This document shows positions 30,394-48,279 of a DNA stretch of 64,000 nt, piece after piece (position 1 is the first letter of the stretch; every line of letters begins with the position of its first letter). The notes beneath the pieces are model-generated. The model worked only from the letters and a program-made list of their open reading frames with translations, did no database searches and had not been told where the DNA came from. Position numbers and translations under genes: made by a program. Origin of the DNA: Candidatus Levybacteria bacterium CG2_30_37_29 (GTDB lineage: Bacteria; Patescibacteriota; Microgenomatia; Levybacterales; GWA1-39-11); assembly GCA_001873215.1 (NCBI GenBank), contig MNYS01000008.1, positions 2,657 to 66,656 on the forward strand, in the 5' to 3' direction.

Positions 30394-30403
30394 AAAAAAA
30401 TAC

Positions 30404-30454
30404 TATATTCGATTGCGAATTCAATGCAATCTCAGACAGTGATTGCATTATATC
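30404..30454. repeat. 51-nt IS-target/IS-end-like repeat (intact copy)
   Basis: TATATTCGATTGCGAATTCAATGCAATCTCAGACAGTGATTGCATTATATC. The first 31 nt are 29/31 identical to 47105-47135, and the tail matches 48255-48271. Confidence 0.55.
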
Positions 30455-30461
30455 AAATGTG

Positions 30462-30534
30462 TGGGCGGTGCAAGACTTGAACTCGCGACATCTTCGGTGT
30501 AAACGAAGCGCTCTACCAGCTGAGCTAACCGCCC
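30462..30534 (-). tRNA. tRNA-Val(TAC)
   Basis: GGGCGGU acceptor, anticodon loop UUUACAC, GCGAGUUCAAGUCUUGC T-arm. Confidence 0.85.
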
Positions 30535-30583
30535 TTTAAACTTTCCTTAGCACAAACCAACATTTGAACAAACCATGTGTTAG

Positions 30584-30626
30584 TTTCAACCTGCCTGAAC
30601 ATAGACTGTGCCACATACGAACAACG
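30584..30626. repeat. tRNA 3'-flank repeat core (second copy)
   Basis: 43/43 nt identical to 30241-30283, ending 10 nt before the tRNA-Leu(GAG) 3' end. Confidence 0.6.
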
Positions 30627-30635
30627 GGAGAAATG

Positions 30636-30722
30636 TGCCGAGGACAGGACTTGAACCTGCACGTCTTATTTAAGGACACAAGAACCTCAATCTTGCGTGT
30701 ATACCAATTTCACCACCTCGGC
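30636..30722 (-). tRNA. tRNA-Leu(GAG), long variable arm
   Basis: GCCGAGG acceptor, anticodon loop UUGAGGU, 17-nt variable arm, GCAGGUUCAAGUCCUGU T-arm. Confidence 0.8.
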
Positions 30723-30776
30723 AAGCTTCGGCGCAAACACCCAACTTGTACAGTTAGTATTTTACCAAACATAGTC

Positions 30777-31757
30777 ATGTTAAAACAAGAACACATTGCT
30801 ATAATGTTTTTAATGGATGTTATTTTTATATTTTTTACAATTCTTGGTCTATCTCTTTTTGAAATAATTACAAGCATTGACAATGCAATTATTAATGCTG
30901 AAGTGCTCGGAGGAATGAGCAATAGAGCAAAAAAATGGTTTTTGACATGGGGAATAGTATCATCTATTTTCATTGTCAGAGGAGTCTTACCCTTTCTTAT
31001 TCTTTATGCAACCGTTCCACAACTTGGTGTTGTAAATACCATAACCGCAGCTTTTTCATCAGATCCCAATATTGCTGAAACCATAAAAGAATCATCTCAT
31101 GTTCTGCTTATTGCAGGGGGGGTCTTTTTAATTTTTCTTTTTTTTCACTGGCTTTTCTTAGAACCTAAAAATTTTGGCCTTAGGGGCGAAAGGTTTTTCC
31201 ATTCAAAAGGTGTTTGGTTTTATGCAATCGTATCAATACTTTTAACAGTAATTGTGTGGTTTGCATTCAAACAAAACAATCCATTGCTTCAGTTTGGCGC
31301 CGTTGTAGGATCTACAATGTTTTTTATAATTCATGGATTCAAAGGATATGCAGAAGAGCAGGAAAAAAAACTTTTATCGGTTGGCGTATCTGATTTTGCA
31401 AAAATTGCATACCTTGAAATACTGGACGCAAGCTTTTCAATTGATGGAGTAATCGGGGCTTTTGCATTTACCTTTGCAATTCCTCTTATACTTATAGGGA
31501 ATGGCTTAGGAGCAATCGTATTGAGGCAAATAACAATTAGCAATATAGAACGGATAAAAAAATATAAATACCTAAAAAACGGAGCAATGTATTCGATTTT
31601 AATACTTGGTATTGTAATGCTTTTGCATAGCTTTAGAATTGAGATTCCTGAATGGTTATCACCCGTTGCAACATTTGCAATTGTTGGTTACTTTTTTTAC
31701 AAGTCAAATATTGACCTTAAAACAATTACTGACTTATCTGAACCAAATAAAAAGTAG
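30777..31757 (+). CDS. TerC/DUF475-family integral membrane protein
   Basis: SIDNAIINAEV motif and ~8 TM segments. The track ORF starts earlier (TTG at 30564), inside the tRNA genes. Trimmed here to the first ATG past them. Confidence 0.55.
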   Translation: MLKQEHIAIMFLMDVIFIFFTILGLSLFEIITSIDNAIINAEVLGGMSNRAKKWFLTWGIVSSIFIVRGVLPFLILYATVPQLGVVNTITAAFSSDPNIAETIKESSHVLLIAGGVFLIFLFFHWLFLEPKNFGLRGERFFHSKGVWFYAIVSILLTVIVWFAFKQNNPLLQFGAVVGSTMFFIIHGFKGYAEEQEKKLLSVGVSDFAKIAYLEILDASFSIDGVIGAFAFTFAIPLILIGNGLGAIVLRQITISNIERIKKYKYLKNGAMYSILILGIVMLLHSFRIEIPEWLSPVATFAIVGYFFYKSNIDLKTITDLSEPNKK

Positions 31758-31782
31758 AGAAGTCCCACTTCATTTTTCAAAG

Positions 31783-31874
31783 TGCCCGAGAGAGGACTCG
31801 AACCCTGCCTGCCGGCAGGCAGGCTCCACACCATTGCTGGTACAGCGTTCTGAACGCTGCTTGTCTACCTGCCA
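31783..31874 (-). pseudogene. tRNA-Leu(CAG) 3' three-quarter fragment with a 20-nt palindrome in the T-stem
   Basis: D-arm, CAGCG-UUCAGAA-CGCUG anticodon arm, long variable arm and CUCGGGC-A acceptor 3' strand are all present. Removing CCTGCCTGCCGGCAGGCAGG (31804-31823) restores a GGAGG/CCUCU T-stem. There is no matching 5' acceptor strand locally. Confidence 0.6.
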
Positions 31875-31881
31875 AAGCATG

Positions 31882-31962
31882 TGCCAGGAGGGGGACTCGA
31901 ACCCCCACATCTTGCGATACACGGTTCTGAACCGTGCTTGTCTACCATTTCAACATCCTGGC
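31882..31962 (-). tRNA. tRNA-Leu(CAG), intact
   Basis: GCCAGGA/UCCUGGC acceptor, anticodon loop UUCAGAA, 13-nt variable arm, GGGGGUUCGAGUCCCCC T-arm. Begins 4 nt after the GIY-YIG stop. Confidence 0.8.
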
Positions 31963-31966
31963 TTAT

Positions 31967-32212
31967 TTATGTTGCGCTATTTATCTCTTGTATTATCTCA
32001 CGACCAAACCCTGATTTAAAGAACTTCTCGAGTTTAATTGCGTCCCCTAGCGACACACAGATTTCTACATGAATAAGCTTAAATGGTGCTAAATGTTTTA
32101 TGGAAGCTGTTTTATTATTGTTGTGTTCGGAAAGTCTTCTTAAGATATTATTCGTATAACCTTTATAAAAAACGTCCTTTTTTTGACTTTTAATAACATA
32201 TACGTAATACAT
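31967..32212 (-). CDS. small GIY-YIG nuclease-family protein (second copy)
   Basis: The YVYVIKSQKKDVFYKGYT…RRLSEHN motif set fills essentially the whole 81 aa. The start ATG directly abuts the tRNA 5' fragment. Confidence 0.75.
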   Translation of the reverse strand: MYYVYVIKSQKKDVFYKGYTNNILRRLSEHNNNKTASIKHLAPFKLIHVEICVSLGDAIKLEKFFKSGFGREIIQEINSAT

Positions 32213-32213
32213 A

Positions 32214-32261
32214 TGCGTGTCTACCCCTGCCTGCCGGCAGGCAGGATTCCAACACTCGGGC
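32214..32261 (-). repeat. tRNA 5' fragment (acceptor plus D-arm) with palindrome in the D-loop
   Basis: GCCCGAG-UG-UUG-GAAUCC[UGCCUGCCGGCAGGCAGG]GGUAGA-CAC-GCAU. The acceptor strand is the exact complement of the 3' strand of the fragment at 31783. Near-identical to the plus-strand unit at 33727-33773. Confidence 0.6.
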
Positions 32262-32291
32262 TCATACGTATTGTACCAATACTAATTTTTC

Positions 32292-32324
32292 TTGACAAGA
32301 AATAGCAATTTATGTAATTATAAT
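32292..32324 (+). promoter_or_regulatory. putative promoter
   Basis: TTGACA at 32292 with TAATTA/TATAAT about 17-21 nt downstream. The ATG at 32332 is very close, suggesting a short leader or leaderless transcript. Confidence 0.3.
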
Positions 32325-32331
32325 GTATTAA

Positions 32332-32925
32332 ATGAAAAAGCTTGTTCTGCTCGCAAGTTACTCGATTTTTATGCCGATTTTTTTACTCGCCTTAATTATA
32401 TATTCCATGTCGCTTACCAAAGTGGCTGTCGCAAATTTTAACGACGCAAACACAGAGGTTTTGGGTACAGAAACAGCATCATCTCATCTCATTTCCAATA
32501 ATACAAATAGGGATATTATTGCTGCATCCGGTGAAAAAGGGCGTACTACAATTTTGAAAGAATTTTTGAACAAATATAATTCGCCTCTTTTACCATACGC
32601 GGTGCACATTGTTTCTGCGGCAGACTTTTACGGAATTGACTACCGTCTTCTTCCGGCAATTGCACTTCAAGAAAGCACGCTTTGCAAAAAAATTCCAAAA
32701 GAATCTTATAATTGTTGGGGATTTGGAATTTATGGAGGAAATGTTACACGATTTACAAGTTATGAGGATGCAATAGAAACAATTTCAAAAACTTTGGCAA
32801 AAGAATACAAAGCAAAAGGCCTTGAACATCCGACAGAAATAATGACAAAATACACGCCGCAAAGCAATGGAAGCTGGGCGAAAAATGTAAGCTACATAAT
32901 GGACAGAATAAGCCCCTCGCTTTAG
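32332..32925 (+). CDS. membrane-anchored secreted protein, possible peptidoglycan-hydrolase (lytic transglycosylase/lysozyme-like) domain
   Basis: TM anchor. Central LLPAIALQESTL…CWGFGIYGG region paralogous to the gene at 33137-33685. Confidence 0.35.
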   Translation: MKKLVLLASYSIFMPIFLLALIIYSMSLTKVAVANFNDANTEVLGTETASSHLISNNTNRDIIAASGEKGRTTILKEFLNKYNSPLLPYAVHIVSAADFYGIDYRLLPAIALQESTLCKKIPKESYNCWGFGIYGGNVTRFTSYEDAIETISKTLAKEYKAKGLEHPTEIMTKYTPQSNGSWAKNVSYIMDRISPSL

Positions 32926-33136
32926 GTATTTCTTAAACTTCAATCTACTTTAAGGTGATTTTGAACATTTTTGTGCATAAAACTACATATTATGGCCTGT
33001 AGTAAAGTACTTGACAAACCTATAGTTCTATGATAAGATACTGATTAGATCCTAAGGTAGCCCAAAACTACTTTAGGATTTTTTAATGGTTTGAGTAATC
33101 CTCAAGTTTCTATTTGTCATAGGCACTTGAATAATT

Positions 33137-33685
33137 ATGAAAACTACAAAAACTTTTTTAATCCTTGTAGCACTTCTTATTGCTACACTTACATTTTCCA
33201 AAAATGCATACGCGGAAGGTACTGCTGTACCCTCAGCAAAGCTTTTGTCATTTGACAGCTCAAAAATCATTGAAAAGGACGTACGCAGTATTGCAATTGA
33301 AAATATTTTCAAAAAATACAATTCTCCACTTCTAGGCCTTGGCGCAACTTATGTAAAATACGCTGATAAATACGGCGTGGACTGGAAGCTTTTACCTTCA
33401 ATATCAGGGCTTGAATCAAGCTTTGGACAATTTCTTATGCCCGGCTCTTATAATGGTTACGGATGGGGCGGAGGCTACATATATTTTGAAAGTTGGGAAG
33501 ACGGAATTGACATAATTAACAAAACTTTGCGCGGCAACTACATGGATAAATGGGGCGCAACCGACGTTTGGAGTATTGGTCCTATTTATGCAGAGTCAAA
33601 AACATGGTCTGTGAGGGTAAACGGCTTTATGAATGAAATCGAAGCAGAATACAAATCTCTTCTCGCAGTCACCCCCACAATCTAA
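33137..33685 (+). CDS. paralogue of 32332-32925
   Basis: Shares NSPLL…YGVDWKLLPSISGLESSFGQ…GYGWGG with the upstream gene. Confidence 0.35.
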   Translation: MKTTKTFLILVALLIATLTFSKNAYAEGTAVPSAKLLSFDSSKIIEKDVRSIAIENIFKKYNSPLLGLGATYVKYADKYGVDWKLLPSISGLESSFGQFLMPGSYNGYGWGGGYIYFESWEDGIDIINKTLRGNYMDKWGATDVWSIGPIYAESKTWSVRVNGFMNEIEAEYKSLLAVTPTI

Positions 33686-33726
33686 CTCTTTTTCCAAAGC
33701 TGGTTAAACTGTATAATACCTTTATT

Positions 33727-33773
33727 GCCCGGGTGGTGAAATTCTGCCTGCCGGCAGGCAGGAGTATACACGC
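33727..33773 (+). repeat. tRNA 5' fragment with palindrome in the D-loop (plus-strand copy)
   Basis: GCCCGGG-UG-GUG-AAAUUC[UGCCUGCCGGCAGGCAGG]AGUAUA-CAC-GCAU, followed by CGCAA-GACC-UUGCG and a U-run. No 3' half is present. Confidence 0.6.
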
Positions 33774-33825
33774 ATGGTTTAAGAACTTGCTCTCAAGTTC
33801 GCAAGACCTTGCGACCTTAATTTTT

Positions 33826-33906
33826 GCGGATGTGGTGAAATGGTATACACGATAGGTTTAGGACCTATTGCCGTAAGGCGTGGAGGTTCAAGTCCTCTCA
33901 TCCGCA
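33826..33906 (+). tRNA. tRNA-Leu(TAG), long variable arm
   Basis: GCGGAUG acceptor, anticodon loop UUUAGGA, variable arm UGCCGUAAGGCGU, GGAGGUUCAAGUCCUCU T-arm. Confidence 0.85.
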
Positions 33907-33953
33907 CAAATACAGCTTTACTTATAGGCTCATTTCCAGTATAATATCTCTCT

Positions 33954-34862
33954 ATGGCAAACGTGAAGAAAGAAAATACGGACCAAACAGCAGTTAAAAC
34001 CTATTCTACTGCAAAACCTCGAGTAATCGTAAATCGGCTTTCTGATTCATCTGTTGAAATAAAAATTGTTGTCCCGTGGGGAGACGTAGAAAAGGTTCGA
34101 AAAGAAGTAGTAGATAAGCTTGCGCAAACTGTAACCGTGCCTGGATTTAGACCCGGAAAGGCGCCAAAAAATGTTGCCTCTGCAAAAATTCCAAAAGAAA
34201 AAGTACAGGAAGAAATGCTCAAAATTATTTTAACCAATGAGTATACAAAAGCCGTAAAGGACAATGATATAAAGCCGATTATAAATCCTAAAATTCACAT
34301 AGAAGCTTTTGAGGAGGGAACCCCGCTTGAATTCGAGGCAATGACTTGTGAAGAACCAATAGTTGAATTAGGAAATTACAAAGACGCTATCAAAAAAATC
34401 ACTGCTCCTTCTAAAATTGTTTTACCCGGCAAAGACCCTTCGGCTAGCTCAGGGCAGGAGAAGATTCCGCTTGATGATGTATTAAAAGCTGCGCTTTCGG
34501 CAACAACAACAAATATTCCACACGTGTTAGTAGAACAAGAAACAAACCGACTTTTATCACAACTTCTTGACGAAATTAAAAGGCTTGGAGTAAGTCTTGA
34601 CCAATATCTTGCATCACGCAGTAAAAATTCGGATCAGCTAAGAACAGAATATGAAGAAAAGGCAAAATCTGATATAAAGCTTGAATTTATGCTAAGAAAA
34701 ATTGCCGATACCGAAAAAATTGTTGTTGAACAAAAAGATATTGAAACCGCTCTTGCAACGATTGAAGACCAGAACCAAAGAAAAGAAATAGCACAAAATC
34801 CGTATATGCTTGCAGGAATTATCCGTCAGCAAAAAACTCTTGATTTTCTTTCAAAGCTTTGA
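33954..34862 (+). CDS. tig: trigger factor (shortened form)
   Basis: N-terminal ribosome-binding motif GFRPGKAP plus a PPIase-like middle region. 302 aa, versus about 430 aa canonically. Confidence 0.6.
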   Translation: MANVKKENTDQTAVKTYSTAKPRVIVNRLSDSSVEIKIVVPWGDVEKVRKEVVDKLAQTVTVPGFRPGKAPKNVASAKIPKEKVQEEMLKIILTNEYTKAVKDNDIKPIINPKIHIEAFEEGTPLEFEAMTCEEPIVELGNYKDAIKKITAPSKIVLPGKDPSASSGQEKIPLDDVLKAALSATTTNIPHVLVEQETNRLLSQLLDEIKRLGVSLDQYLASRSKNSDQLRTEYEEKAKSDIKLEFMLRKIADTEKIVVEQKDIETALATIEDQNQRKEIAQNPYMLAGIIRQQKTLDFLSKL

Positions 34863-34925
34863 TAAAATCCTTGATTTTTAAGTCTTTAGGTATATAATAT
34901 TGGGGTAAAAAGGTTTGTTAGGAAA

Positions 34926-35558
34926 ATGAAAACTACACAAAAAAGACAAGTTAGCCAAGAATCAATTGAGGCTAAAAGAATCGACTCATCTTCTGATTTT
35001 AAAGATATTCCCAAAGGAATAACAAAGACTACATGGAATGAGTTTTTTGCAAAAATGCCCGGTGGCATTCTTGACCAAACACTAGGACTTGATAATAAAA
35101 CAGAGCAACAGCTTTTAGAAGGCGAAGAGTTTATTCTCAAGAAAAAAGAAGAGAAAAGAGTAGAGGGGGTACAAATGCACCGAGAAACTTATTTTCGACA
35201 AGTTGAAAATGCCGATTTAATGCATCAGAACAAAGAAGAATATCAAATAAGAAATCAGGTTGACCAAATAAGAATGGAGATAAAAAAACTTATTAAAACT
35301 TCAAAAATTGTTGAGGAGACTGTAAAAGGAGCAGTTGCCGAACAAGCACCTGTGAGACCGGGAAAATACCATGTATCTTTTTTTGAATTTGTACTGAACA
35401 CAATAAAAGACGCAACAAGACAGCTTGAGGATAGCGTTTCTTTTGGCTCAGTATTTCAAAATAAAAAACAACAAAAATCATATTGGAAAATGTATAAAAA
35501 ACACGGTACGACTTTCGGCCTTTCGGGTGAACGCACCACAGCCACCCAAACAGGTTAA
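34926..35558 (+). CDS. hypothetical charged protein
   Basis: ORF preceded by a promoter-like TTGATT-16-TATAAT. No family recognised. Confidence 0.3.
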   Translation: MKTTQKRQVSQESIEAKRIDSSSDFKDIPKGITKTTWNEFFAKMPGGILDQTLGLDNKTEQQLLEGEEFILKKKEEKRVEGVQMHRETYFRQVENADLMHQNKEEYQIRNQVDQIRMEIKKLIKTSKIVEETVKGAVAEQAPVRPGKYHVSFFEFVLNTIKDATRQLEDSVSFGSVFQNKKQQKSYWKMYKKHGTTFGLSGERTTATQTG

Positions 35559-35671
35559 CTTGACAACAAAAAAAGTTTTGTTATAAAATAAATCAAATGA
35601 AAAATCAAATAGTTATCATTACACGCCTTCTTCTTAGCTTGCGCTAGGGGAGGTAAATAGTGGTTATGCAC

Positions 35672-35697
35672 GGCCTCCCACACGGGAGGTTTTTTTA
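35672..35697 (+). terminator. Rho-independent terminator (repeat family copy A)
   Basis: GGCCUCCC-ACAC-GGGAGG followed by 7 U. The same module recurs at 39994-40019. Confidence 0.55.
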
Positions 35698-35828
35698 TGG
35701 GAAATTCAAGGAAACCCCGATCTATCGGGGAGGAATTGAAATGACCAAAGAGCTTCCTTCAGAGGCAAAGTCCTCCAAAAGAGGAAAGCTCTTATGGAAA
35801 TTCAAGGAAAGAGAGGAGGTGAAAAAAT

Positions 35829-36038
35829 ATGAACAAATCAGAACGAGAATATGCAGAATCAAACCATGCCAGAAACAGGATTAATTCTAGGTTTGGTGTT
35901 GATGAAACACCAAATCCTAAAGTAGGTCCAAACAGACAGATGTATGAAATCCGTCTTGAAGAAGACTTTGAAAGCGATCCAAGACTTTTTGCAACGCGAA
36001 TGGCTGAAGAAGCCGAAGGATTTAATACAAATCAATAA
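35829..36038 (+). CDS. hypothetical small protein
   Basis: 69-aa ORF with a strong RBS GGAGGTG 7 nt upstream. Confidence 0.3.
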   Translation: MNKSEREYAESNHARNRINSRFGVDETPNPKVGPNRQMYEIRLEEDFESDPRLFATRMAEEAEGFNTNQ

Positions 36039-36213
36039 GTGGAATAAAAATTCAGCAACAAACCATATAGCTTTATTATTTATAATTTGCTAGAATCAAA
36101 GCTACGTACGGGCTCATAAGATTATTAGGATAATCTTGAGTGCCCTCATTTCATTCGGGCTCATAGCCATGCCCCGCTTCGCGGGGTCAGTTGGAAATCA
36201 ACTTTTGAAAAAT

Positions 36214-36290
36214 GGACGATTAGCTCAGTTGGTTAGAGCGTTGCATTGACATTGCAAAGGTCACAGGTTCAAATCCTGTATCGTCCACCA
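36214..36290 (+). tRNA. tRNA-Val(GAC), CCA encoded
   Basis: GGACGAU/AUCGUCC acceptor, anticodon loop UUGACAU, ACAGGUUCAAAUCCUGU T-arm, then ACCA. Confidence 0.85.
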
Positions 36291-36303
36291 TTTTCCAAAA
36301 GGC

Positions 36304-36395
36304 AGAGCGTTGCATTGACACCCGCCCGCAACGCTAAAGCGTAGCTTTGCGGGCGTGGTTGCAAAGGTAATCCCGATTCAATCGGGATTGGGCCC
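36304..36395 (+). other. partial tandem copy of tRNA-Val with a 38-nt hairpin at anticodon-loop position 37/38
   Basis: AGAGCGUUGCAUUGACA (identical to tRNA positions 21-37), then a 38-nt GC-rich hairpin at 36321-36358, then UUGCAAAGG (identical to positions 38-46). A divergent T-arm UCCCG-AUUCAAU-CGGGA and UUGGGCC follow. There is no 5' acceptor or D-stem. Confidence 0.5.
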
Positions 36396-36416
36396 ACAAT
36401 TTGTTATACTAATGTT

Positions 36417-37013
36417 ATGGACGAGACTACAATTAAATCACAAACCCGTGCCGAAGCTTTCGCAAACCTCGAAACTCTGATAAAAAATCCAAATCTTATA
36501 AAACATCATTTGGCGGCTGAAGCTGCTATGCGTGAAATAGCGCTATATTTAAAGACAAAAAGCGACCTACTTATAAACGAAGATGATTGGGCAATTGTGG
36601 GTCTTTTACACGATGCGGATTATGAAATAACACATGATAAGCCTGCGCGCCATACAATAGAACTTGAAGAAAGACTTGGGAAAACATTAAAGCCTGAAAT
36701 CATGTATGCCATAAAATCCCACAATTGGAAACATAACGGGATTGAACCAAAAAGCCTTATGGATTGGGCAATTTATACTTGCGATGAGTTAACTGGGATT
36801 ATTATCGCCGCAGCTCTTATAAGCCCTGACAAAAATCTTGCAAACTTAACATCTGATTTTATTTTGAAGAGAATAAAAGAGAGATCTTTTGCAAAATCTG
36901 TTGACCGTAAACAAATTTCAGTATGCGAGGAAAAGCTTGGCATACCTCTTTCCGAGTACGTACAATTGGTTTTGGTAAGTATGCAGAAAATTGCCCCAAG
37001 TCTTGGATTATAA
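36417..37013 (+). CDS. HD-domain phosphohydrolase
   Basis: H…HD metal-binding motif (GLLHDADYE). Confidence 0.6.
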   Translation: MDETTIKSQTRAEAFANLETLIKNPNLIKHHLAAEAAMREIALYLKTKSDLLINEDDWAIVGLLHDADYEITHDKPARHTIELEERLGKTLKPEIMYAIKSHNWKHNGIEPKSLMDWAIYTCDELTGIIIAAALISPDKNLANLTSDFILKRIKERSFAKSVDRKQISVCEEKLGIPLSEYVQLVLVSMQKIAPSLGL

Positions 37014-37021
37014 GAAAAAAA

Positions 37022-37246
37022 ATGGAAACAAAACACGACAACATAAATAAACCTCTTAAAAGAATATTCATAAATAACTTTGTAGGAGGAATAGCTTGGG
37101 GTCTCGGAGCAACAGTTGGCGCCGGAATACTTTTGGCATTTTTCGGATTTCTCCTTTCACAAATAAATCTTATACCTGTAATTGGTGTATTTGTGTCTGA
37201 TATATTTAAATTTGTTGTATATAATAACCCAAATCTGATAAAATGA
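37022..37246 (+). CDS. small membrane protein
   Basis: ATG at 37022, within the longer track ORF. Two TM helices. Confidence 0.35.
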   Translation: METKHDNINKPLKRIFINNFVGGIAWGLGATVGAGILLAFFGFLLSQINLIPVIGVFVSDIFKFVVYNNPNLIK

Positions 37247-37261
37247 TAGCCTCAAACCGAT

Positions 37262-38503: not shown

Positions 38504-38513
38504 AATTCATTAG

Positions 38514-39050
38514 ATGCAGAGGCGCCGTAAACAATATAAGCCAAGCGTATTCTATAGAAGGAATTACCAGATTACTGCTCAAACAATAAGGCTTATTGCA
38601 GATGATGGAAGACAAATTGGAGTAGTTAGTCGGGAAGATGCGCTGAAGATGTCCCAAGATCAAAATGTTGATCTTGTAGAAATAGGGCCAACCGCTATTC
38701 CGCCTGTTGTAAAGCTTATTGACTACAGTAAATTTCTGTACCAATTAAAAAAGAAAAAACAGGAGGAAAAGAAAAAAACCCAAACTTCTGAGACAAAACA
38801 GATACAACTTGGACCTTTTATTGATGACCATGATTTGGACATAAAATTGAAGAGAGCGGATGAATTTATAAAAGACGGAGATAAAGTAAAATTTGTTTTA
38901 AAATTTAGAGGACGAGAGATAACAAAAAAAGAATTGGGCGAAGAAGTACTAAAAAAAGTTATGGAAAAAATGCAAAGTGTTGCAAAAGTTGAAAAAGATA
39001 TGCATATGGAAGGACGACAAATGATACTAGTAATGTCAAAACTAAAATAG
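38514..39050 (+). CDS. infC: translation initiation factor IF-3
   Basis: IF3 N and C domains (…VDLVEIGPTAIPPVVKLIDYSKFLY…) with a Lys/Glu linker. Confidence 0.8.
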   Translation: MQRRRKQYKPSVFYRRNYQITAQTIRLIADDGRQIGVVSREDALKMSQDQNVDLVEIGPTAIPPVVKLIDYSKFLYQLKKKKQEEKKKTQTSETKQIQLGPFIDDHDLDIKLKRADEFIKDGDKVKFVLKFRGREITKKELGEEVLKKVMEKMQSVAKVEKDMHMEGRQMILVMSKLK

Positions 39051-39060
39051 TAATAAAAAT

Positions 39061-39993: not shown

Positions 39994-40019
39994 AGCCTCC
40001 CACACGGGAGGTTTTTTTT
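39994..40019 (+). terminator. Rho-independent terminator (repeat family copy B)
   Basis: AGCCUCCC-ACAC-GGGAGG followed by 8 U, after rplT. An upstream GGGAGG at 39954 could pair alternatively. Confidence 0.55.
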
Positions 40020-40101
40020 GTGGTTTAAAGCCGATGTAGTTTTAGCTATATCGGACGAAAGGATGTGATTTAATACGACAAAAGAAGGACAACCAATACA
40101 A

Positions 40102-40284
40102 ATGGAACAACAAATTGCTGCGCTATCAACTCGTTTGATAAGTATAAGAGATGTTGCGCCGGGATCAGAACATCATCAACATGCACTAAAAGAACTTATG
40201 ACAATTTTGGCATCCGACAAGAAAGCGGTTGATGTCTTAGCAAAACAACAGGGAAGAGAGGTTCAAAAGGACGATCGAATATGA
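40102..40284 (+). CDS. hypothetical small protein
   Basis: 60-aa ORF between the terminator and pheS. Confidence 0.25.
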   Translation: MEQQIAALSTRLISIRDVAPGSEHHQHALKELMTILASDKKAVDVLAKQQGREVQKDDRI

Positions 40285-40299
40285 TATCCTTAAGAAAAC

Positions 40300-41337: not shown

Positions 41338-41338
41338 A

Positions 41339-43294
41339 ATGAACATAAAAATACTTGATAGCTGGTTAAGGGATTATTTAGAAACAAAAGCAAGTCCTAG
41401 TAAAATTGCCGAAATTCTTTCTTTGACAAGCGTTTCAATAGAACGCATAGAAAAACTAGGAGACGATTTTCTGTACGATATAGAAATTACAACCAATAGA
41501 CCGGATCTTATGGGAGTTATCGGTCTTGCGCGCGAAGCAGCAACAGTACTTCCGGCAACAGGAATTGATGCAACATTTATTCCTCCCCGATTTTCCAAAC
41601 CAAAAGACGTAAGTGATGAAGTTACTCTTCCGGTTATTAAAAATGACGATACTCTTGTAAATAGAATTTGCGCGGTTATTATGGAAGTAGAATTCGGAAA
41701 TTCTCCGGAATATATTAAAAAGCGGCTTGAATCTTCAGGAATTCGAAGCATCAATAATGTAGTAGACGTCACAAATTATGTCATGCGGGAAACTGGACAC
41801 CCCGCTCATGTTTTTGACTACGACAGACTGAATTCCAAAACTTTGATTATCAAAGCTGCAAAAAAGGGCGAGAAAGTTATAACTCTTGACGGGAAAGAAT
41901 ATACGCTTTCTGGAGGAGATATTGTTGCATACAACGGTGAAGGAAAAATTGTTGACTTATTAGGCATTATGGGCATACAAAACAGCGTTGTTACAGACTC
42001 GACAAAAAGAATTTTATATTTTATTGATAATAATAATCCGGTTCAAATAAGAAAAACTTCTATGGAGCATGGAATAAGAACGGAAGCCGCTGTAATAAAT
42101 GAAAAAGGACCGGACCCGGAAATTGCTTTTGGGGCACTTCTTTGCGGAATAAAATTATTTGAAAAAATTGCGAAAGGAAAAGTTGTATCAAAAATTCTTG
42201 ACATTTATTTTAATAAGCCGGCGTCTAAAACAGTTACTGTTGACGAAAGTAAAATTAATTCTGTAATTGGCATTGATATTCCCTTAAAAGATGCCAAATC
42301 AACACTTGATAACCTAGGTTTTGAGACAAAAATTACTGGAAAATCTATTGCTGCTAGTGTTCCTTCATTCCGACTTGGAGATATAACAATTGCCGAGGAT
42401 ATTATTGAAGAAATAGCGCGCGTTTATGGATATTCCCGCCTACCAAGCATTCTCCCAACTTTCCAAAACAATACTCCTTTTCATCAGGAAAAAAATCTTT
42501 TTTATTGGGAAGCGCGCTGCCGAAATTTTTTCAAATATTCAGGTTTTACGGAAATCTATACTTACGCGCTTGTTTCCCCCGAATTATATGAAGGTAATCT
42601 TGACGATGCGGTAACGCTTCAAAATCCACTGAATGAAGAAATGGCATACATGAGGCGTACTCTTGTCCCAAGCCTTCTACAAGTAGCCAGCGATAATCCA
42701 TCACGAGAAGAGTTTTCAATTTTTGAAATAGCAAATGTTTATTTAAAAAAAGGAAGAGATCTCCCTGATGAACGCCTAACTCTTGCCGGGATAATTAAAA
42801 TGCAGAAGATAGACTTTTTTACCGTAAAAGGAGTTATTGAAAACCTTTTTTTTGATTTTGGAATAAAGAACATAGAGTGGAAAGAAGACTCGGGGGGCGG
42901 AAACGGAGCAGATATTTATATTGATAACATAAAAATCGGAACAATAGAATTGCTTTCTGATTCACTTGCTGATTTTGAGATTGATTTTGCATCTATTTTT
43001 GAACATGCAACACTTAAAAAGATATACAACCCAATTCCAAAATTTCCTCCTGTAATTGAGGATATCAGAATAAAACTTTCTGAAAATACTACTTTTGAAA
43101 AAGCAATAAAATTAATTAAAAAACAAAGTTCTCTTATTTCGTCTGTTAAGCTTTTGGATATTTATGGTGACAAAATTACACTTCGAATTACTTATCAAAA
43201 TTCTAATAAAAACTTAACAAACGAAGAAATAACACCAATTCGAAAAAAAATAATTTCCAATCTAAAACACAGCCTCAAAGCAGAAATTGCTTAA
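41339..43294 (+). CDS. pheT: phenylalanine--tRNA ligase beta subunit (N-terminally reduced)
   Basis: B3/B4, B5 and catalytic-like domains plus a C-terminal FDX-ACB-like domain. 651 aa, against about 800 canonically. Start is 2 nt after the pheS stop. Confidence 0.85.
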   Translation: MNIKILDSWLRDYLETKASPSKIAEILSLTSVSIERIEKLGDDFLYDIEITTNRPDLMGVIGLAREAATVLPATGIDATFIPPRFSKPKDVSDEVTLPVIKNDDTLVNRICAVIMEVEFGNSPEYIKKRLESSGIRSINNVVDVTNYVMRETGHPAHVFDYDRLNSKTLIIKAAKKGEKVITLDGKEYTLSGGDIVAYNGEGKIVDLLGIMGIQNSVVTDSTKRILYFIDNNNPVQIRKTSMEHGIRTEAAVINEKGPDPEIAFGALLCGIKLFEKIAKGKVVSKILDIYFNKPASKTVTVDESKINSVIGIDIPLKDAKSTLDNLGFETKITGKSIAASVPSFRLGDITIAEDIIEEIARVYGYSRLPSILPTFQNNTPFHQEKNLFYWEARCRNFFKYSGFTEIYTYALVSPELYEGNLDDAVTLQNPLNEEMAYMRRTLVPSLLQVASDNPSREEFSIFEIANVYLKKGRDLPDERLTLAGIIKMQKIDFFTVKGVIENLFFDFGIKNIEWKEDSGGGNGADIYIDNIKIGTIELLSDSLADFEIDFASIFEHATLKKIYNPIPKFPPVIEDIRIKLSENTTFEKAIKLIKKQSSLISSVKLLDIYGDKITLRITYQNSNKNLTNEEITPIRKKIISNLKHSLKAEIA

Positions 43295-43304
43295 AAATTA
43301 ATGT

Positions 43305-43535
43305 ATGAAAGCGGCTTCAACAATTTCAAAAAGAGACAGGGAAAAATATGTTTTGAAAGAGGCGATTGATGAAGAAATACTAATCAAGTGTAAGAGACTT
43401 GAAACAACGGAGTTGAACGATCAAGATAAATTATTAGTAAAATTGATTAAAACACAACTTGAAGATGACTGGCGCACACCCCTTGTTAAAGAAATAGCTA
43501 GAGTGTTTAAAAAATACTTCAAGTCCGAGATATAA
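43305..43535 (+). CDS. hypothetical small protein
   Basis: 76-aa charged ORF. Confidence 0.25.
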   Translation: MKAASTISKRDREKYVLKEAIDEEILIKCKRLETTELNDQDKLLVKLIKTQLEDDWRTPLVKEIARVFKKYFKSEI

Positions 43536-43678
43536 TGAAAAAAAAGAACACGCTAACTCCGCAGACAAAGCAACCATTAACCTTTTTCTCAAAAATCTAA
43601 AACCATAATTTTTTTATATCTTTATCTTACATTCGTACGAACATACGAACGATATGATATTATAAAAATAATGAAATT

Positions 43679-43948
43679 ATGCTAAGGAAAAGAACAATTG
43701 AACAAATTGTCAGAAGTTTTTCAAACCACAGAAGGATAGCTATGCTATGCTTGCTCGATGAAAATCCTGAACTTTCGGTTTCTCAAATAGCGGGTGACTT
43801 AAAAATTGATATAAAGCTTGCAAGCTTTTATTTGAGAAAGCTCACTATTGCAGGTTTAATTATGAAAAAAAGTAATGGAAAATTTATTAGACACAAACTT
43901 ACAAAACGTGGTGTTTTTGTTCTTACATTCATACGAACATTAGAATGA
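43679..43948 (+). CDS. ArsR-family winged-helix transcriptional regulator
   Basis: HxxR…VSQIAGDL…LRKLTIAGLI HTH pattern. Palindromic TTCGTACGAA operator-like repeats lie upstream. Confidence 0.5.
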   Translation: MLRKRTIEQIVRSFSNHRRIAMLCLLDENPELSVSQIAGDLKIDIKLASFYLRKLTIAGLIMKKSNGKFIRHKLTKRGVFVLTFIRTLE

Positions 43949-43971
43949 AGATTCAAGTTTATTAATTGTTT

Positions 43972-44694
43972 CTACACAAATTTATTAAACCAAGCGAGAG
44001 TTTCTTGGAAAAGGTTTTCTTCGGCTCCGTCTTCGTCAAAACAATGAGTGGCATTTGGTATAACCACAAATTTCTTTGGTTCGTTTGCATTTTTAAAAAA
44101 CTTTTTCCCACCATCAACTAATTCCCCATTTCCTGCTACCACAACAAGACTAGGTTTATTAATTTTTTTTATCAGATCGCGTGGATTAAGCGTTTGAGTC
44201 TCCTCAAACATTTCTTTCCCGATTGTAAAACCGTATGAAGCTTCAGCCGTTACGTAATATTTATCAAGTTCTGTTACGTATTTTGATTTCGTAACCTTAG
44301 ATGGATTATCTGAAGCTTCCCAAAGCACCATGGCGTCGAAGTCTTTTTTCTTTGATAATAAAACCGTAACCCCACCAAAGCTATGTCCAACAACAAATAA
44401 CTTCTCGACTCCTTCTTTACGAAAAAAATCTACAACCCTATCAAGATCTTGCCCATGCAACGATAAAGTACAATCTTCAAGTTTTCTCGCATCTTCTTCC
44501 CAACCATACAAATCGAATCTGAAAGTTGAAAATCCCTTATCTTCAAAAAATCTCGCAGCATTAAAAAATTGATGTTCATTTTTGTGTCCGGTAAATCCGT
44601 GAACGAAAATAATTAAAGGGGATGAGAGATCTCCTCTTAATATTCCGTATATATTTTTACTGTTTTTAAGCGGAATTTTAATCGTCTTTTCCAT
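43972..44694 (-). CDS. alpha/beta hydrolase
   Basis: GHSFGG nucleophile elbow. Confidence 0.55.
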   Translation of the reverse strand: MEKTIKIPLKNSKNIYGILRGDLSSPLIIFVHGFTGHKNEHQFFNAARFFEDKGFSTFRFDLYGWEEDARKLEDCTLSLHGQDLDRVVDFFRKEGVEKLFVVGHSFGGVTVLLSKKKDFDAMVLWEASDNPSKVTKSKYVTELDKYYVTAEASYGFTIGKEMFEETQTLNPRDLIKKINKPSLVVVAGNGELVDGGKKFFKNANEPKKFVVIPNATHCFDEDGAEENLFQETLAWFNKFV

Positions 44695-44714
44695 TCAATT
44701 ATTATACCATTGCC

Positions 44715-47021
44715 TTATGGCGTAAGGGTGGGAGTAAGAGTTGGAGTGGGGGAGATTGAAACTGTCGGCGTGGGAGTCGGCGTAGTATCATTATTTGAAT
44801 TTTGATCGTATTTATAATCAGACGTGTCTTTCGACGGGTGATATTTTGAATCATCTTTGTGGTTTTGCTCAACCCATGCATTAATCGCATCCTGCCATCG
44901 ATTTTTCCCGTCCGTACTCACCGGATCTGACTCATCAAAAACTATAAAATCTTTTACATCAAAATCCGAGTGTAAAATTTCGTCACTATTTGCTAGTTTG
45001 TCTGTCTGCTTTTTTGAAATTTTAAGTTTTTTATAAATAGAAGCAAGCGTAGTTGGCTCGGTTCCTTTTACAAAATATTCTGTCCTTTTCGGCTGACCGT
45101 CAATTGGAAGTCCTCCTGAAAAAGAATCTATTTCCAACGGAATAACACTGTCCGGTTTTTTCGGCTGTTCATCAGGCTTTCCTTTCAGAACAAATTTCAT
45201 TATTTTACTCCAAATTGGAGTAGCCCCCGTGACTCCGGAAGCAATACGCGGATTCATTGGTGAATTATCATTATTTCCAACCCAAACACCAACTACATAA
45301 CTTGGGGTGTATCCAACAGTCCAGTTATCACGTTTGCTGTCGGTTGTTCCTGTTTTGACAGAAACTGTTCTACCGGAAACAACTAAATAGGAGTTCGGAC
45401 CAAAAACAAGCTGCCGCGCATTATTATCAAGAAGAATGTGTGAAATTATAAATGCGACTTCAGAAGAGAGTACGCGTGTCCCATCTTCGTTTTTATGCTT
45501 ATACAAACTTTTACCTCTTGAATCTTTTACCTCAACTATTGAAAATGGCTCTTTTTTTATACCGCTTGCTGCAAAAACAGAATAAGCCGAGGATATTTGA
45601 AGAAGTGTTGCCTCTCTTCCTCCAAGAACAAGCGATAATCCAACGCTTCTTAAATTTTCGCTCGTCGGCTTCCAATTTTCAATTCCCATGCTGTATGCTT
45701 TTTGCATAACAGGCTTTATTCCAACACGTGCAAGCATTTTAACCGCGGGAATATTTATAGAATTTCCAAGAGCAAATCTAAGCTGCATTGGTCCGTTATA
45801 CTTTCCGTCATAATTTACGGGTGTATAAATCGGAAGTGTCGGATCATTTGTCGGAAAGTCTGTTTTTAAATCCATTATCAAACTTGAAGCCGTATATCCT
45901 TTCTCAAAAGCAGTTGCATACATAATAGGCTTAAGACTTGATCCTGGCTGGCGAAGAGCAGTCGCAGCATTGAAATTTCCCTCGTTTTTTGTATCAAAAT
46001 AATCATGACTTCCTACCATTGCCAGAATTCCTCCGGTTTTTGCATCCAAAACAACAGCTGCTCCATTTCCCACGTTGAATCCTTTAAGATTTTTTTCAAA
46101 CTCGTTTGTAACTATATCTTCGGCGTTTTTTTGTACTTCATAGTCAAGCGAGGTCGTAACAGTCAAATTACCGTTTTCTACAGCCGCTTCTCCGTACATT
46201 TTTACCAATTGCTCCTTGACATACTGCACGAAATGCGGAGCCTTCAAATTACCCTGTTTTTGTGTAAACGTGAAGCCTTCTACCTGACGTATTGCATCGT
46301 CTGACTGTTTTTTTGAAATTCTTCCATCTTCGCGCATTCTTCTCAAAACATATTTTGTTCTATCAATATAAGATTTGTTTTTTCCAGCAAAAGGAGAGTA
46401 ATAAGTGGGCGCTTGGGGGAGGCCCGCTAAGAATGCACTTTGAGCAAGATCCAATTCTTTTACATGCTTTCCGAAATATAAATTGCTTGCTGCTTCAACG
46501 CCAATTGCCGTTCCTCCATATCCGACATTGTTTAAATACATTTCTAAAATTTGGTCTTTTGAAAATCTTTGATCGACTTGAACTGCCAAAATAAGCTCCT
46601 TTGCCTTTCTCGTTAAATTCCTCTCAGGAGACAAAAGCACGTTTTTTACAAGCTGTTGAGTTATTGTAGAACCTCCTGTAACCCTGTGAAAAAAAATCGG
46701 GTCTATAAACGCTCTAAATAACCCTTTGACAGAAAACCCAGGGTTGGTATAAAAATCCTTGTCTTCTGTTGAAACTGTTGCCTCAAGCAGGATCTTCGAC
46801 ATATCAGTCAGCGGAACATAAAGCCTATTGTAATCTTTGAAAATTGAGTAAAGAACAACTCCTTTTTTATCAAGTATTTTGGTTGAGTCGCGTATTTCGG
46901 AATTGGAAAGTTTGCCCGGAGTCGGCAAGTCTCGGGAAATCCACAAAAAATACAAGAAAAACAAAACTACAAACCCTATTATTCCGAAAAGTGTAAAACG
47001 GGTTATCTTACTTAACAACAT
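44715..47021 (-). CDS. bifunctional penicillin-binding protein 1A (transglycosylase plus transpeptidase)
   Basis: GT51 motifs (GGSTITQQL) and transpeptidase SxxK/SxN/KTG (SSLKP, KTGTT). Thr/Pro-rich C-terminal tail. Start trimmed to the ATG preceding the TM anchor. Confidence 0.8.
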   Translation of the reverse strand: MLLSKITRFTLFGIIGFVVLFFLYFLWISRDLPTPGKLSNSEIRDSTKILDKKGVVLYSIFKDYNRLYVPLTDMSKILLEATVSTEDKDFYTNPGFSVKGLFRAFIDPIFFHRVTGGSTITQQLVKNVLLSPERNLTRKAKELILAVQVDQRFSKDQILEMYLNNVGYGGTAIGVEAASNLYFGKHVKELDLAQSAFLAGLPQAPTYYSPFAGKNKSYIDRTKYVLRRMREDGRISKKQSDDAIRQVEGFTFTQKQGNLKAPHFVQYVKEQLVKMYGEAAVENGNLTVTTSLDYEVQKNAEDIVTNEFEKNLKGFNVGNGAAVVLDAKTGGILAMVGSHDYFDTKNEGNFNAATALRQPGSSLKPIMYATAFEKGYTASSLIMDLKTDFPTNDPTLPIYTPVNYDGKYNGPMQLRFALGNSINIPAVKMLARVGIKPVMQKAYSMGIENWKPTSENLRSVGLSLVLGGREATLLQISSAYSVFAASGIKKEPFSIVEVKDSRGKSLYKHKNEDGTRVLSSEVAFIISHILLDNNARQLVFGPNSYLVVSGRTVSVKTGTTDSKRDNWTVGYTPSYVVGVWVGNNDNSPMNPRIASGVTGATPIWSKIMKFVLKGKPDEQPKKPDSVIPLEIDSFSGGLPIDGQPKRTEYFVKGTEPTTLASIYKKLKISKKQTDKLANSDEILHSDFDVKDFIVFDESDPVSTDGKNRWQDAINAWVEQNHKDDSKYHPSKDTSDYKYDQNSNNDTTPTPTPTVSISPTPTLTPTLTP

Positions 47022-47135
47022 AATGCGGTTGAGGGATGAAGTGCGGTATCTTAGTCTTCTTGCATGAAACCTACCAGGGCGCCTGTAATTTTGCATATTT
47101 CTATTATATTCGCTTGCGAATTCAATGCAAGCTCA

Positions 47136-48256
47136 TGTAATGACTTTATAATTATAGTGTTTTATTGTACTTGTTTCAAATTCTGTCATGGACATATAGA
47201 TACCGTAACACTTCCTCTTTTCTTTTCTTGTAGTATCCTAACATAATCTGCCGGTCTTTTGTAACCTAGTGAATGATGGTATCGTAGGTTGTTGTACTTG
47301 TAGTTAAATATTTTGCAATGTTCGTTAATCATATCAAGGTCATCAAGCAGGTCATATTGATAGTTAAAATATTCGTACTCGGCTGTCTGGTGGAGACGCT
47401 CAACTCTCCCATTTTGTTTGGGACAATGGGGATCTGTAAAGAAATGGGGGATATTCCAGGAGATAATCTCTTTGTGAAATTCAAACAGATATTCTGAGCC
47501 ATTATCAGTATTAATTGCTTGTATGGGGAAAGGGAAATAATCTCTCACTTTGCAAATGAAGTCTTTTCCTGAGACAGAAGATATTGTTTTGTAACAATGG
47601 ATAAAGGCGTATCGGCTCTTGCAGTCAATTGCCGAGAATATATAGAATTTCTTTCCTAATACGTAGAAGTATTTAGTATCAACTTGGACAAGAGAGCCGA
47701 GATTCTTCTCTCGTAGCTCAATTGCAGCCTTGATGCGAGCGATCTTGAAGTTTCTGTGTTTTTTGAGACGCTTCTTGTGCTGGATATTTAAAAGCTTTGG
47801 ATCTCTGTTGATTACCTTCTGAATTGTGGTTGTTCCACAAGTTACTCCCTCGTTTTTTAGTTCTGCCTGTATCTCATACTTTGATTTTTCAATATCACCT
47901 TCACGAATACTTTTAATTCTGTCAATTATAAACTGTGCTGTTGTCATTTCTCTTGTTTTCTTTGGTCTCCGGGTTTTTAAATCATCCTCAAGTCCTAAAA
48001 GCCCTAATTTACTAAACCGCTTAAGCCACCTGTAAAACACATCTGGAGATAAAGCGAAATGGCGAAGAGTTAAACGAACCTTTCCTCCATGAAAATGGTA
48101 CCAATCAATCCATATAAGTCTTTCTTGTGCCTTTTTTGACAACCTCACATCTCTCACCTGCGCCCAAGGAACAATTCTGTATGCTCGCATATACGAGCCA
48201 TTGTACCGTCCTTTCAAAATGTATCAAGTGTAACGGGATGTATCGCGTCCTAGACA
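47136..48256. mobile_element. IS481-family insertion sequence (boundaries ±30 nt)
   Basis: Single DDE transposase ORF. Terminal TGTAATGAC…GACAATTCA imperfect inverted ends. Flanks correspond to the two halves of the 51-nt repeat that is intact at 30404-30454. Confidence 0.55.
47186..48217 (-). CDS. IS481-family DDE transposase
   Basis: N-terminal HTH and an rve integrase core with D(VQVDTKYF), D(INTDNGSEY) and E(PKQNGRVERLH). Confidence 0.75.
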   Translation of the reverse strand: MKGRYNGSYMRAYRIVPWAQVRDVRLSKKAQERLIWIDWYHFHGGKVRLTLRHFALSPDVFYRWLKRFSKLGLLGLEDDLKTRRPKKTREMTTAQFIIDRIKSIREGDIEKSKYEIQAELKNEGVTCGTTTIQKVINRDPKLLNIQHKKRLKKHRNFKIARIKAAIELREKNLGSLVQVDTKYFYVLGKKFYIFSAIDCKSRYAFIHCYKTISSVSGKDFICKVRDYFPFPIQAINTDNGSEYLFEFHKEIISWNIPHFFTDPHCPKQNGRVERLHQTAEYEYFNYQYDLLDDLDMINEHCKIFNYKYNNLRYHHSLGYKRPADYVRILQEKKRGSVTVSICP

Positions 48257-48279
48257 ATTCACAGTTATTGCATTCCCAA

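Follow-up and report, generated by a model that had tools for sequence, protein, structure and literature searches.

In the genome of Candidatus Levybacteria bacterium CG2_30_37_29, a 64,000-nucleotide (nt) stretch of contig MNYS01000008.1 (the whole stretch analysed, hereafter the window) carries an insertion sequence (IS) with a DDE transposase in the divergent spacer between tyrS and the PBP1A gene. Next to it lies one copy of a short repeat, of which a second copy is located between the genes for tRNA-Val and tRNA-Phe. A first-pass annotation had read this arrangement as an IS481-family element inserted into a copy of a 51-nt repeat that is intact elsewhere. Both the repeat and the IS are real, but the IS had been drawn 48 bp too long. 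With its ends corrected the IS sits at the upstream edge of a promoter-like site, as its relatives do elsewhere, and the "51-nt repeat" is most likely a reused promoter cassette of leaderless type that is unrelated to the IS. We consider this combined explanation, a promoter-edge IS beside a reused promoter cassette, to be probable, and the apparent homing of the IS to promoter edges to be the more interesting of the two results. The features concerned are the following (coordinates refer to the window):

30401-30454, minus strand: cassette copy A, between tRNA-Val and tRNA-Phe
44715-47096, minus strand: PBP1A gene, ATG at 47096
47103-47148, minus strand: cassette copy B, CATTACATGAGC-TTGCAT (47130-47125)-16 nt-TATAAT (47108-47103)
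47151-47179, minus strand: promoter-like site P1, TTGAAA-17-TATAAT, directed toward PBP1A, 11 of 12 consensus positions; its -35 begins directly after the target-site duplication, and it is the target of the IS
47180-47183: target-site duplication ATTC (direct reading), PBP1A side; 5 bp at the same place in relatives
47184-48256, minus strand: IS481-like insertion sequence, 1,073 bp, termini 5'-TGTC...GACA-3'
47184-47213, plus strand: right inverted repeat (IRR), TGTCATGGACATATAGATACCGTAACACTT, at the same position as the IRR in contigs L012-L014 and L019-L063
47186-48190, minus strand: transposase gene, a single open reading frame (ORF) of 334 amino acids (aa), DD(35)E candidates D171, D229 and E264
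48200-48227, minus strand: promoter-like site, TTGATA-16-TACAAT, 9 nt upstream of the transposase ATG
48227-48256, minus strand: left inverted repeat (IRL), TGTCTAGGACGCGATACATCCCGTTACACTT, found in conserved form at the beginning of all related copies
48257-48260: target-site duplication ATTC (direct reading), tyrS side
48261-48274, plus strand: probable relic of the cassette's upstream arm, ACAGTTATTGCATT, parted from the core of copy B by P1 and the IS
48279-48307, plus strand: tyrS promoter-like site, ATGACA-17-TATAAT, 6 nt before the ATG, untouched by the IS
48314-49504, plus strand: tyrS, ATG at 48314

Identity and distribution of the insertion sequence

The transposase is encoded without a programmed frameshift and matches the Pfam domains rve, rve_3, HTH_28 and HTH_32. 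Its residues D171, D229 and E264 are invariant across eight homologues, which gives the DD(35)E spacing. The best NCBIfam match is the IS481 model (NF033577; E 1.1e-45, profile positions 2-283 of 284), followed by IS3 with 77 bits, and the ISNCY model is matched weakly and in part (E 1.2e-7). Because the IS481 score of 156 bits falls under the curated cut-off of 224 bits, the element is best classed as a distant branch of the IS481 family. The structural features of that family are all present, i.e. a single DDE ORF, TGT...ACA ends, a length of about 1 kb and a short target duplication. The earlier assignment is supported in the form "IS481-like".

An exact look-up of a 343-aa form of the ORF with a TTG start came back empty; the 334-aa form with ATG start is recorded. 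Exactly this protein is encoded on 22 public contigs, among them PFPM01000014.1 of assembly GCA_002793055.1, and on all of them except one it lies between tyrS and the PBP1A gene. The 2-kb region comprising the IS and its flanks is 99.85-100% identical between samples, and every contig with the exact TyrS protein (17 of 17) has the IS. The insertion is fixed across the sampled populations. A scan of genome contigs with the transposase identified four relatives in other genomes (56-82% aa identity), and twenty-odd more copies were obtained by means of three transposase homologues (87%, 81% and 69% identical), to which two more were added later. The IS lineage is common in genomes of Patescibacteria (candidate phyla radiation, CPR). 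Scans of viral contigs yielded no relatives of the transposase, with four chance matches of the 17-mer within a coding region.

Ends, inverted repeats and target duplications

The 5' end of the IS is at 48256, the base beyond which six unrelated flanks (L010-L014) no longer agree. In contig L010 the identity with the window stops at this base and another IS follows, and the alignments of the four relatives start at the very same base with TGTCTAGG.... At their other end the relatives read ...GTATAGGTCC(C/A)GCACA or ...CTAGGCAACCAGCACA, matching their own left ends in inverted complement; the equivalent end in the window is ...GTATCTATATGTCCATGACA, or TGTCATGGACATATAG... on the plus strand from 47184. 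Both ends were confirmed by the twenty-odd additional copies. In a BLAST of the whole IS, positions 1-1073 of the 87% relative correspond to 48256-47184, and one metagenome contig (L028) consists of exactly one related IS copy of 1,073 bp. The termini TGTCTAGGAC... and ...GTCCATGACA form imperfect inverted repeats of roughly 30 bp (about 24 of 34 positions of IRL and IRR paired, with one gap), and the stop codon of the transposase gene, TGA, lies within the IRR tip. The first-pass annotation had placed this terminus at 47136, 48 bp away from the IRR end at 47184 that the relatives define. The intervening 48 bp (47136-47183) are host DNA holding the TTGAAA-17-TATAAT promoter-like site.

The corrected element is bracketed by ATTC on both sides. 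Matched duplications of 5 bp were found in relatives, namely AAGTG (L019), TCCCT (L039), AGTAC (L036), AAAAT (L012) and ATTTC (L063). Several contigs have mismatched duplication pairs whose partners occur in other contigs, and we interpret these assemblies as chimeric across the multicopy IS.

Two further observations concern the tyrS side. A 10-nt direct repeat, GACAATTCAC, is present at 48253-48262 and at 48281-48290; its first copy is made up of the IS tip, the duplication and 2 nt, its second copy overlaps the tyrS -35 ATGACA, and the similarity is possibly a coincidence. In L010 (JGI Ga0100392_1007259; positions 2600-2700) a different IS meets the IRL of the window IS head to head, 2 nt apart, so that in this strain or assembly variant a second IS stands in place of the tyrS side.

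Placement of the lineage at -35 hexamers

For the analysis of target preference 17 independent 3' junctions were compared, i.e. those on 15 other contigs, that of the window IS and that of a solo IS end in the window:

21997-22081, plus strand: solo IS 3'-end remnant of 85 nt, from a second IS of the same lineage, ending ...CCAACCAGGACA

Counted from the base after the terminal ...GACA, positions 1-5 are variable. Positions 6-8 read TTG at all 17 junctions, and are followed by A at position 9 (16 of 17), C at position 10 (12 of 17) and A at position 11 (14 of 17), with a perfect TTGACA at ten junctions. Further downstream a TAnnnT box occupies positions 29-34 (T at 13, A at 12 and the final T at 13 of the 16 junctions long enough to be scored). 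The five variable bases are the target duplication, which directly abuts the -35 hexamer, with the -10 box about 17 nt further on. The transposase gene is oriented toward the promoter at every junction. Because the DNA past the hexamer is unrelated between sites of the same IS, the hexamer is part of the target and not of the element. The window IS obeys this rule minus one base (GACA/GAAT/TTGAAA): it lies 4 bp upstream of P1, as against 5 bp in its relatives at 16 other promoters. The solo remnant, which BLAST matches to P0167- and P0179-type IS 3' ends at 81-95% identity, follows the same rule, since behind it come ATAAT and TTGACT-17-TATAAT, and after 9 nt more a 336-aa ORF begins with the ATG at 22125.

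On contigs L019, L021 and L044 two or three different ISs are stacked on the same 5 bp before one promoter. This sharing of the same five bases by different ISs argues that the downstream motif, rather than the upstream DNA, would be the recognised part. The stacked arrangements seen among L019-L027, L044 and L012 include IS(309 aa)/AAGTG/IS/AAGTG/TTGACA and IS/TTAGC/IS; in L012 a 13-nt IRR-like tip stands 5 nt before IRL, resembling a junction of abutted ends.

Selection alone cannot produce a nucleotide-precise and orientation-specific placement beside -35 hexamers. The hexamer is presumably read by the transposase, or by a complex of it with promoter-bound RNA polymerase. The N-terminal 148 residues of the transposase returned only transposase-type helix-turn-helix (HTH) families from Pfam at E <= 10, and no HTH like that of sigma-70 region 4. 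Footprints of old insertions of the form RACA-N5-TTGAM are not enriched in the window beyond the known remnant. No description of an IS seeking -35 boxes was found in the open-access literature, which is weak negative evidence. In our judgement the evidence is evenly balanced as to whether a widespread IS481-like lineage of Patescibacteria homes to the upstream edge of sigma-70-type promoters with single-nucleotide precision, in a fixed orientation and with a 5-bp duplication abutting the -35 TTGACA.

The lineage integrates with its IRR (the transposase-distal end) facing a sigma-70-type promoter-like site, and here the IS entered the tyrS/PBP1A spacer directly upstream of the TTGAAA of P1. 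The DNA upstream of P1, including the ATTGCATT arm discussed below, was thereby displaced by 1.07 kb, with the core promoters of both genes unharmed. Since no terminator is predicted between 47186 and 47097, transcription of the transposase gene may continue into the PBP1A gene.

The repeat as a probable reused promoter cassette

The left half of the repeat is as first described: on the same strand, 29 of the 31 positions of 30404-30434 recur in 47105-47135, these are the sole two matches in the window at up to three mismatches, and 100 shuffles yielded none. For the right half the picture is mixed. The segments originally paired, 48255-48271 and 30438-30454, agree at 5 of 17 positions, and a second copy of the right half of the 51-mer is absent from the window at up to three mismatches; in a shifted register 48261-48274 (ACAGTTATTGCATT) matches 30436-30449 (ACAGTGATTGCATT) at 13 of 14 positions. 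The chance expectation for such a match is 0.33 anywhere in the window, 0.003 in the correct orientation within 1.2 kb downstream and 2.6e-4 within 100 nt. Given this low expectation near copy B and in the correct orientation, the right-hand match is probably real, though modest. Both similarities lie in DNA flanking the IS and not inside its terminal repeats.

Copy A comprises the arm AATGCAATC, a 9-nt loop and GATTGCATT, i.e. the internal inverted repeat that had already been noticed. GATTGCATT overlaps the -35 TTGCAT (30429-30424), which is followed by a 16-nt spacer and TATAGT (30407-30402), and the 5' end of tRNA-Phe (30393) lies 8 nt beyond TATAGT. In copy B, TATAAT is followed by 6 nt and the PBP1A ATG. 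A metagenome scan with the 21-nt core found two contigs, the PBP1A locus and L015 (OBEQ010429390.1). The metagenome collection missed the tRNA-side copy, which indicates that the organism is thinly sampled and that the scan gives no copy number. L015 reads ...ATTATATTCGCTTGCGAATTCAATGCAAGCTCATGTAATGATTGCATTATAAC... with no IS present. L015/L068 is identical to the PBP1A copy at 41 of 41 positions (window 47103-47143), a stretch that crosses the supposed IS end at 47136; it then goes on into the right arm TTGCATTATA, which it has in common with the tRNA-side copy. Because L015 carries this stretch without an IS, TGTAATGA is repeat sequence and not an IS tip.

The three copies share one layout, which on the minus strand of the window consists of the arm AATGCAAT, a 12-nt loop (CACTGTCTGAGA or CATTACATGAGC), TTGCAT, a 16-nt spacer TGAATTCGCAA(T/G)CGAA and finally TATAGT (one copy) or TATAAT. 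In each of the three, a gene on the same strand starts 6-8 nt after the -10 box, namely tRNA-Phe, PBP1A and, in L015, a 117-aa ORF. Transcription from the cassette would begin with the downstream gene itself or a few nt ahead of it, so that the mRNAs of PBP1A and of the 117-aa ORF would be leaderless and tRNA-Phe nearly so. The upstream arm forms an inverted repeat with the -35 region, and the three copies probably share descent, which makes this promoter reuse and not convergence. For the cassette as for the other hexamers, promoter activity is deduced from consensus geometry.

Such starts may be widespread in this genome. The window has 14 instances of TATAAT 6-8 nt before an ATG, where control offsets give 4-5. 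Long ORFs begin at no fewer than 12 of these sites (13 hexamer-start pairs listed), tyrS (TATAAT-6-ATG) being one of them, and the transposase gene starts in a similar manner (TACAAT-9-ATG). Examples of long-ORF ATGs placed 6-8 nt after a perfect TATAAT are those at 9926, 15236, 15315, 17888, 18320, 30813, 32332, 33954, 44694, 47096, 48314 and 62451. TATAAT-6-ATG of tyrS is conserved in L018 (GCA_964406795.1), which keeps the divergent PBP1A/tyrS synteny and has neither the IS nor the cassette. By its sequence pattern, the window suggests a frequent use of leaderless mRNAs in this Patescibacteria genome.

The cassette and the IS ends have no BLAST similarity. Enrichment in the window is seen neither for ATTGCATT (7 observed, 6.7 expected) nor for AATGCAA, the arm, in the role of an element generally found upstream of promoters (7 against 4.8 expected). 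L070, the locus with the closest retrieved homologue (84% aa identity) of the cassette's neighbour in L015, lacks the cassette, is not syntenic downstream and is uninformative. Upstream of the third cassette, at 878-920 of L015/L068, 19 nt that include a GC hairpin (ACACGC...GCGTGT) separate a perfect TTGACA from the TATAAT leading the cassette; the arrangement is possibly a terminator, an additional promoter or a combination of the two. The cassette was also considered as a structured RNA or an intrinsic terminator, and this was rejected: no terminator was called, no Rfam family matched the tRNA-side copy, and its hairpins are AU-rich and not unusually stable against shuffles (z = -0.4 to -2.3).

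The site before insertion

Removal of the IS and of one ATTC leaves, on the minus strand, GGGAATGCAAT AACTGT GAAT TTGAAA-17-TATAAT TATAAAGT CATTACATGAGC TTGCAT-16-TATAAT AGAAAT ATG. The simple reconstruction of the first-pass annotation, in which the two halves of the repeat become contiguous, fails because about 46 nt of non-repeat promoter DNA still part the 41-nt core from the ATTGCATT arm. Compared with L015, the reconstructed site has the same cassette plus 46 nt between arm and loop; one single gap gives an alignment of 8/8 and 41/41 and joins AATGCAAT straight to CATTACA. The extra 46 nt bear P1. On this alignment the IS entered the extra segment and not the loop of the cassette. The arm at 48267-48274 was probably once part of copy B, a reading that we favour because of the chance statistics near copy B.

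Alternative explanations

The explanation originally offered was that the IS extends from 47136 to 48256/60 and split the loop of the whole 51-mer, with the 51-mer being either a preferred target or a MITE-like derivative (MITE, miniature inverted-repeat transposable element). In its favour, matches stand on either side of the region, left (29/31) and right (13/14), 47136 starts with TGT, TGTAATGAC is loosely like the true tip TGTCATGGAC, and on the minus strand ...CATTACA/TGAGC/TTGCAT mimics the lineage's own geometry of end, 5 bp and -35. Our data leave it highly improbable. All relatives terminate at the position equivalent to 47184, their IRRs being well aligned; ATTC/ATTC flanks 47184-48256, against GCTCA/ATTCA (3 of 5 positions in agreement) at the ends proposed earlier; and L015 has the same CATGTAATGA inside an uninterrupted cassette free of any IS. 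The 51-mer is absent from 16 of 16 other independent insertion sites of the lineage, which speaks against a preferred target, and it shares nothing with the inverted repeats of the IS and has no duplication of its own, which speaks against a miniature derivative. A variant in which the 48 bp and the IS moved as one unit ending in GTCATTACA was rejected, as the same heptamer belongs to the IS-free cassette of L015. More serious, if still doubtful, is the possibility that the right-hand 13/14 match is a coincidence, in which case copy B would be complete where it stands, its arm decayed at 47149-47162, and the IS would have landed about 20 bp beyond. MAFFT aligns 47149-47165 with the L015 arm at about 10 of 17 positions, and a match of 13/14 is not rare per 64 kb (0.33 expected); the chance drops to 3e-4 to 3e-3 once position and orientation beside copy B are taken into account, and a single 46-nt gap yields the perfect 8/8 and 41/41 alignment with L015.

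The nature of the repeat itself allows two further scenarios. It could be a small mobile or recombinogenic palindromic element, similar to repetitive extragenic palindromic (REP) sequences or MITEs, whose promoter-like hexamers and position before genes are incidental. Its two hairpin-forming inverted repeats, the 41/41 identity at non-homologous loci in two assemblies and its absence from L070 (not syntenic downstream) and from a relative's PBP1A-tyrS spacer would fit. We nevertheless hold this to be unlikely: three copies were found, with two contigs from the exact 21-nt core scan of metagenomes, the edges have no terminal inverted repeats and no duplications, and random insertion would not give a -10 box 6-8 nt from a same-strand gene start in three of three cases. 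Quite unlikely, too, is an operator of one transcription factor, a palindrome AATGCAAT-N-ATTGCATT over the -35 whose similarity was kept by selection on a regulon and not by duplication. The inverted repeat does overlap the -35 in copy A and L015, and with the IS removed, 10-12 nt separate the arm from a -35 downstream of it at all three loci; against this, the identity spans the entire 16-nt spacer and the loop (41/41 and 29/31), beyond what half-sites need, and the counts given above show neither ATTGCATT nor the arm as a general upstream element to be enriched.

A number of points weigh against the combination of promoter-edge IS and promoter cassette. The promoters and leaderless starts are consensus matches; TTGCAT has three of the six bases of TTGACA, so that P2, the promoter-like site of copy B, was uncalled by the scanner. 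The cassette is known from three copies, of which the third may come from another organism. The arm relic rests on the 13/14 match, with the degenerate arm in place at 47149-47162 (about 10/17) as its alternative. The window duplication is 4 bp and not 5, one base short of the family rule. An empty-site allele is absent among the 17 contigs with the exact TyrS protein, and the closest IS-free relatives (69-72% TyrS identity) have spacers too diverged to align. Finally, all observed insertions have survived selection, and the -10 box present at all sites may reflect either the purging of TTGAC insertions outside promoters or recognition of the whole promoter.

Comparison with known systems

IS481 itself targets NCTAGN. 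With the IS481 family the present element shares the single DDE (rve) ORF with N-terminal HTH, the lack of a frameshift, a length of about 1.07 kb, imperfect inverted repeats and a short duplication. The family is described as having TGT..ACA ends and duplications of 2-15 bp, mostly 6 bp (PMC10045372). The element differs in its duplication of 5 bp (4 bp here) in place of the usual 6 and in targeting a -35 hexamer at its upstream edge. In geometry it comes nearest to the ISAba32 subgroup of the IS1202 family, whose members place the IRL 5 bp away from XerCD sites (xrs/dif) and generate duplications of 5 bp (Siguier et al., bioRxiv 10.1101/2022.12.17.520857); this subgroup is related to the IS481 clade (PMC10045372). 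In both cases insertion is orientation-specific and one IS end stands exactly 5 bp from a defined protein-binding site with a 5-bp duplication, but the site is a XerCD site and the end IRL in the ISAba32 subgroup, compared with a -35 hexamer and IRR here, and the transposase is much shorter here. Membership in the ISAba32 subgroup was rejected in view of the weak ISNCY match (E 1.2e-7), of IRR as the abutting end and of the motif, which is TTGACA and not xrs.

IS1397 and ISKpn1 are known as REP-targeting ISs. ISPpu9 of the IS110 family is another (bioRxiv 10.1101/2025.01.17.633520). Homing to short repeated non-coding motifs, by which genes are spared, would link the present lineage to these elements, and was the model initially proposed for the 51-mer. 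The motif here is a promoter -35 box and not a palindromic repeat, and transposase family and chemistry differ. A eukaryotic analogue is found in the Ty elements at Pol III genes.

Outward or hybrid promoters borne by ISs have been reviewed (PMC4803752, introduction). The window IS resembles these cases in lying directly upstream of a gene and co-directional with it, and its tip ATGACA is similar to a -35 hexamer. It differs in that the resident promoter is complete and kept, the IS apparently being drawn to a promoter rather than creating one. For the cassette the relevant precedent is promoter reuse, or "putative mobile promoters" (PMC3575422), in which highly similar promoters stand ahead of unrelated genes within and between genomes. 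The identities of 29/31 and 41/41 ahead of PBP1A, tRNA-Phe and the 117-aa ORF correspond to this description. Particular to the present case are the number of copies, three, the predicted start at the first codon and an arm complementary to the cassette's own -35 region.

Other repeats in the window

A 54-nt repeat is present at 30234-30287 and 30577-30630 (a 93% identical pair) with a partial copy at 6059-6082, all on the minus strand. tRNA-Phe and tRNA-Leu(gag) have the full copies about 5-30 nt to their 3' side, and tRNA-Ala has the partial copy to its 3' side; the repeat contains hairpin-like parts GTGCCA...TGGCAC. The GC-rich palindrome CTGCCTGCCGGCAGGCAGG occurs five times (7459, 29678, 31806, 32228 and 33745) in a window of otherwise 36% GC; two of its copies are inside a 49-nt inverted repeat (88%; 32213-32261 and 33727-33775) that brackets a segment of 1.5 kb. 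At 31782-31805 there is a tRNA-like 3' half called by neither ARAGORN nor Rfam. Identical 24-mers, GCCTCCCACACGGGAGGTTTTTTT, are found 4.3 kb apart at 35673-35696 and 39995-40018 and have a terminator-like form of hairpin plus T-run.

Implications for the locus and the lineage

That an IS with a DDE transposase sits in the divergent PBP1A/tyrS spacer was correctly recognised from the start. Its suggested influence on the promoters of the two genes was borne out as far as its position at a promoter edge is concerned, but the three core promoters (that of tyrS and P1 and P2 of PBP1A) remain intact. With the corrected ends, neither a repeat was broken nor a promoter destroyed, and the IS stands one helical half-turn upstream of a -35. 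The consequences at the locus are that P1 is cut off from its upstream DNA and that the PBP1A gene is now downstream of the transposase gene. As a reused promoter, the cassette would offer a tangible example of how promoters propagate in such genomes, inside one and from one to another.

If homing to promoter edges is true, a DDE transposon would be finding promoters at nucleotide resolution, a type of target selection that is new among bacterial ISs. It would amount to a "safe-haven" strategy for very compact genomes and would help to explain the persistence of ISs in the streamlined genomes of the CPR. ISs would pile up at promoters, transposase read-through would be coupled to host genes, and the IS could help to carry promoter cassettes such as the 31-51-mer between loci. 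Each insertion would also mark a -35 box and thus provide an independent, evolution-derived annotation of promoters for uncultured organisms.

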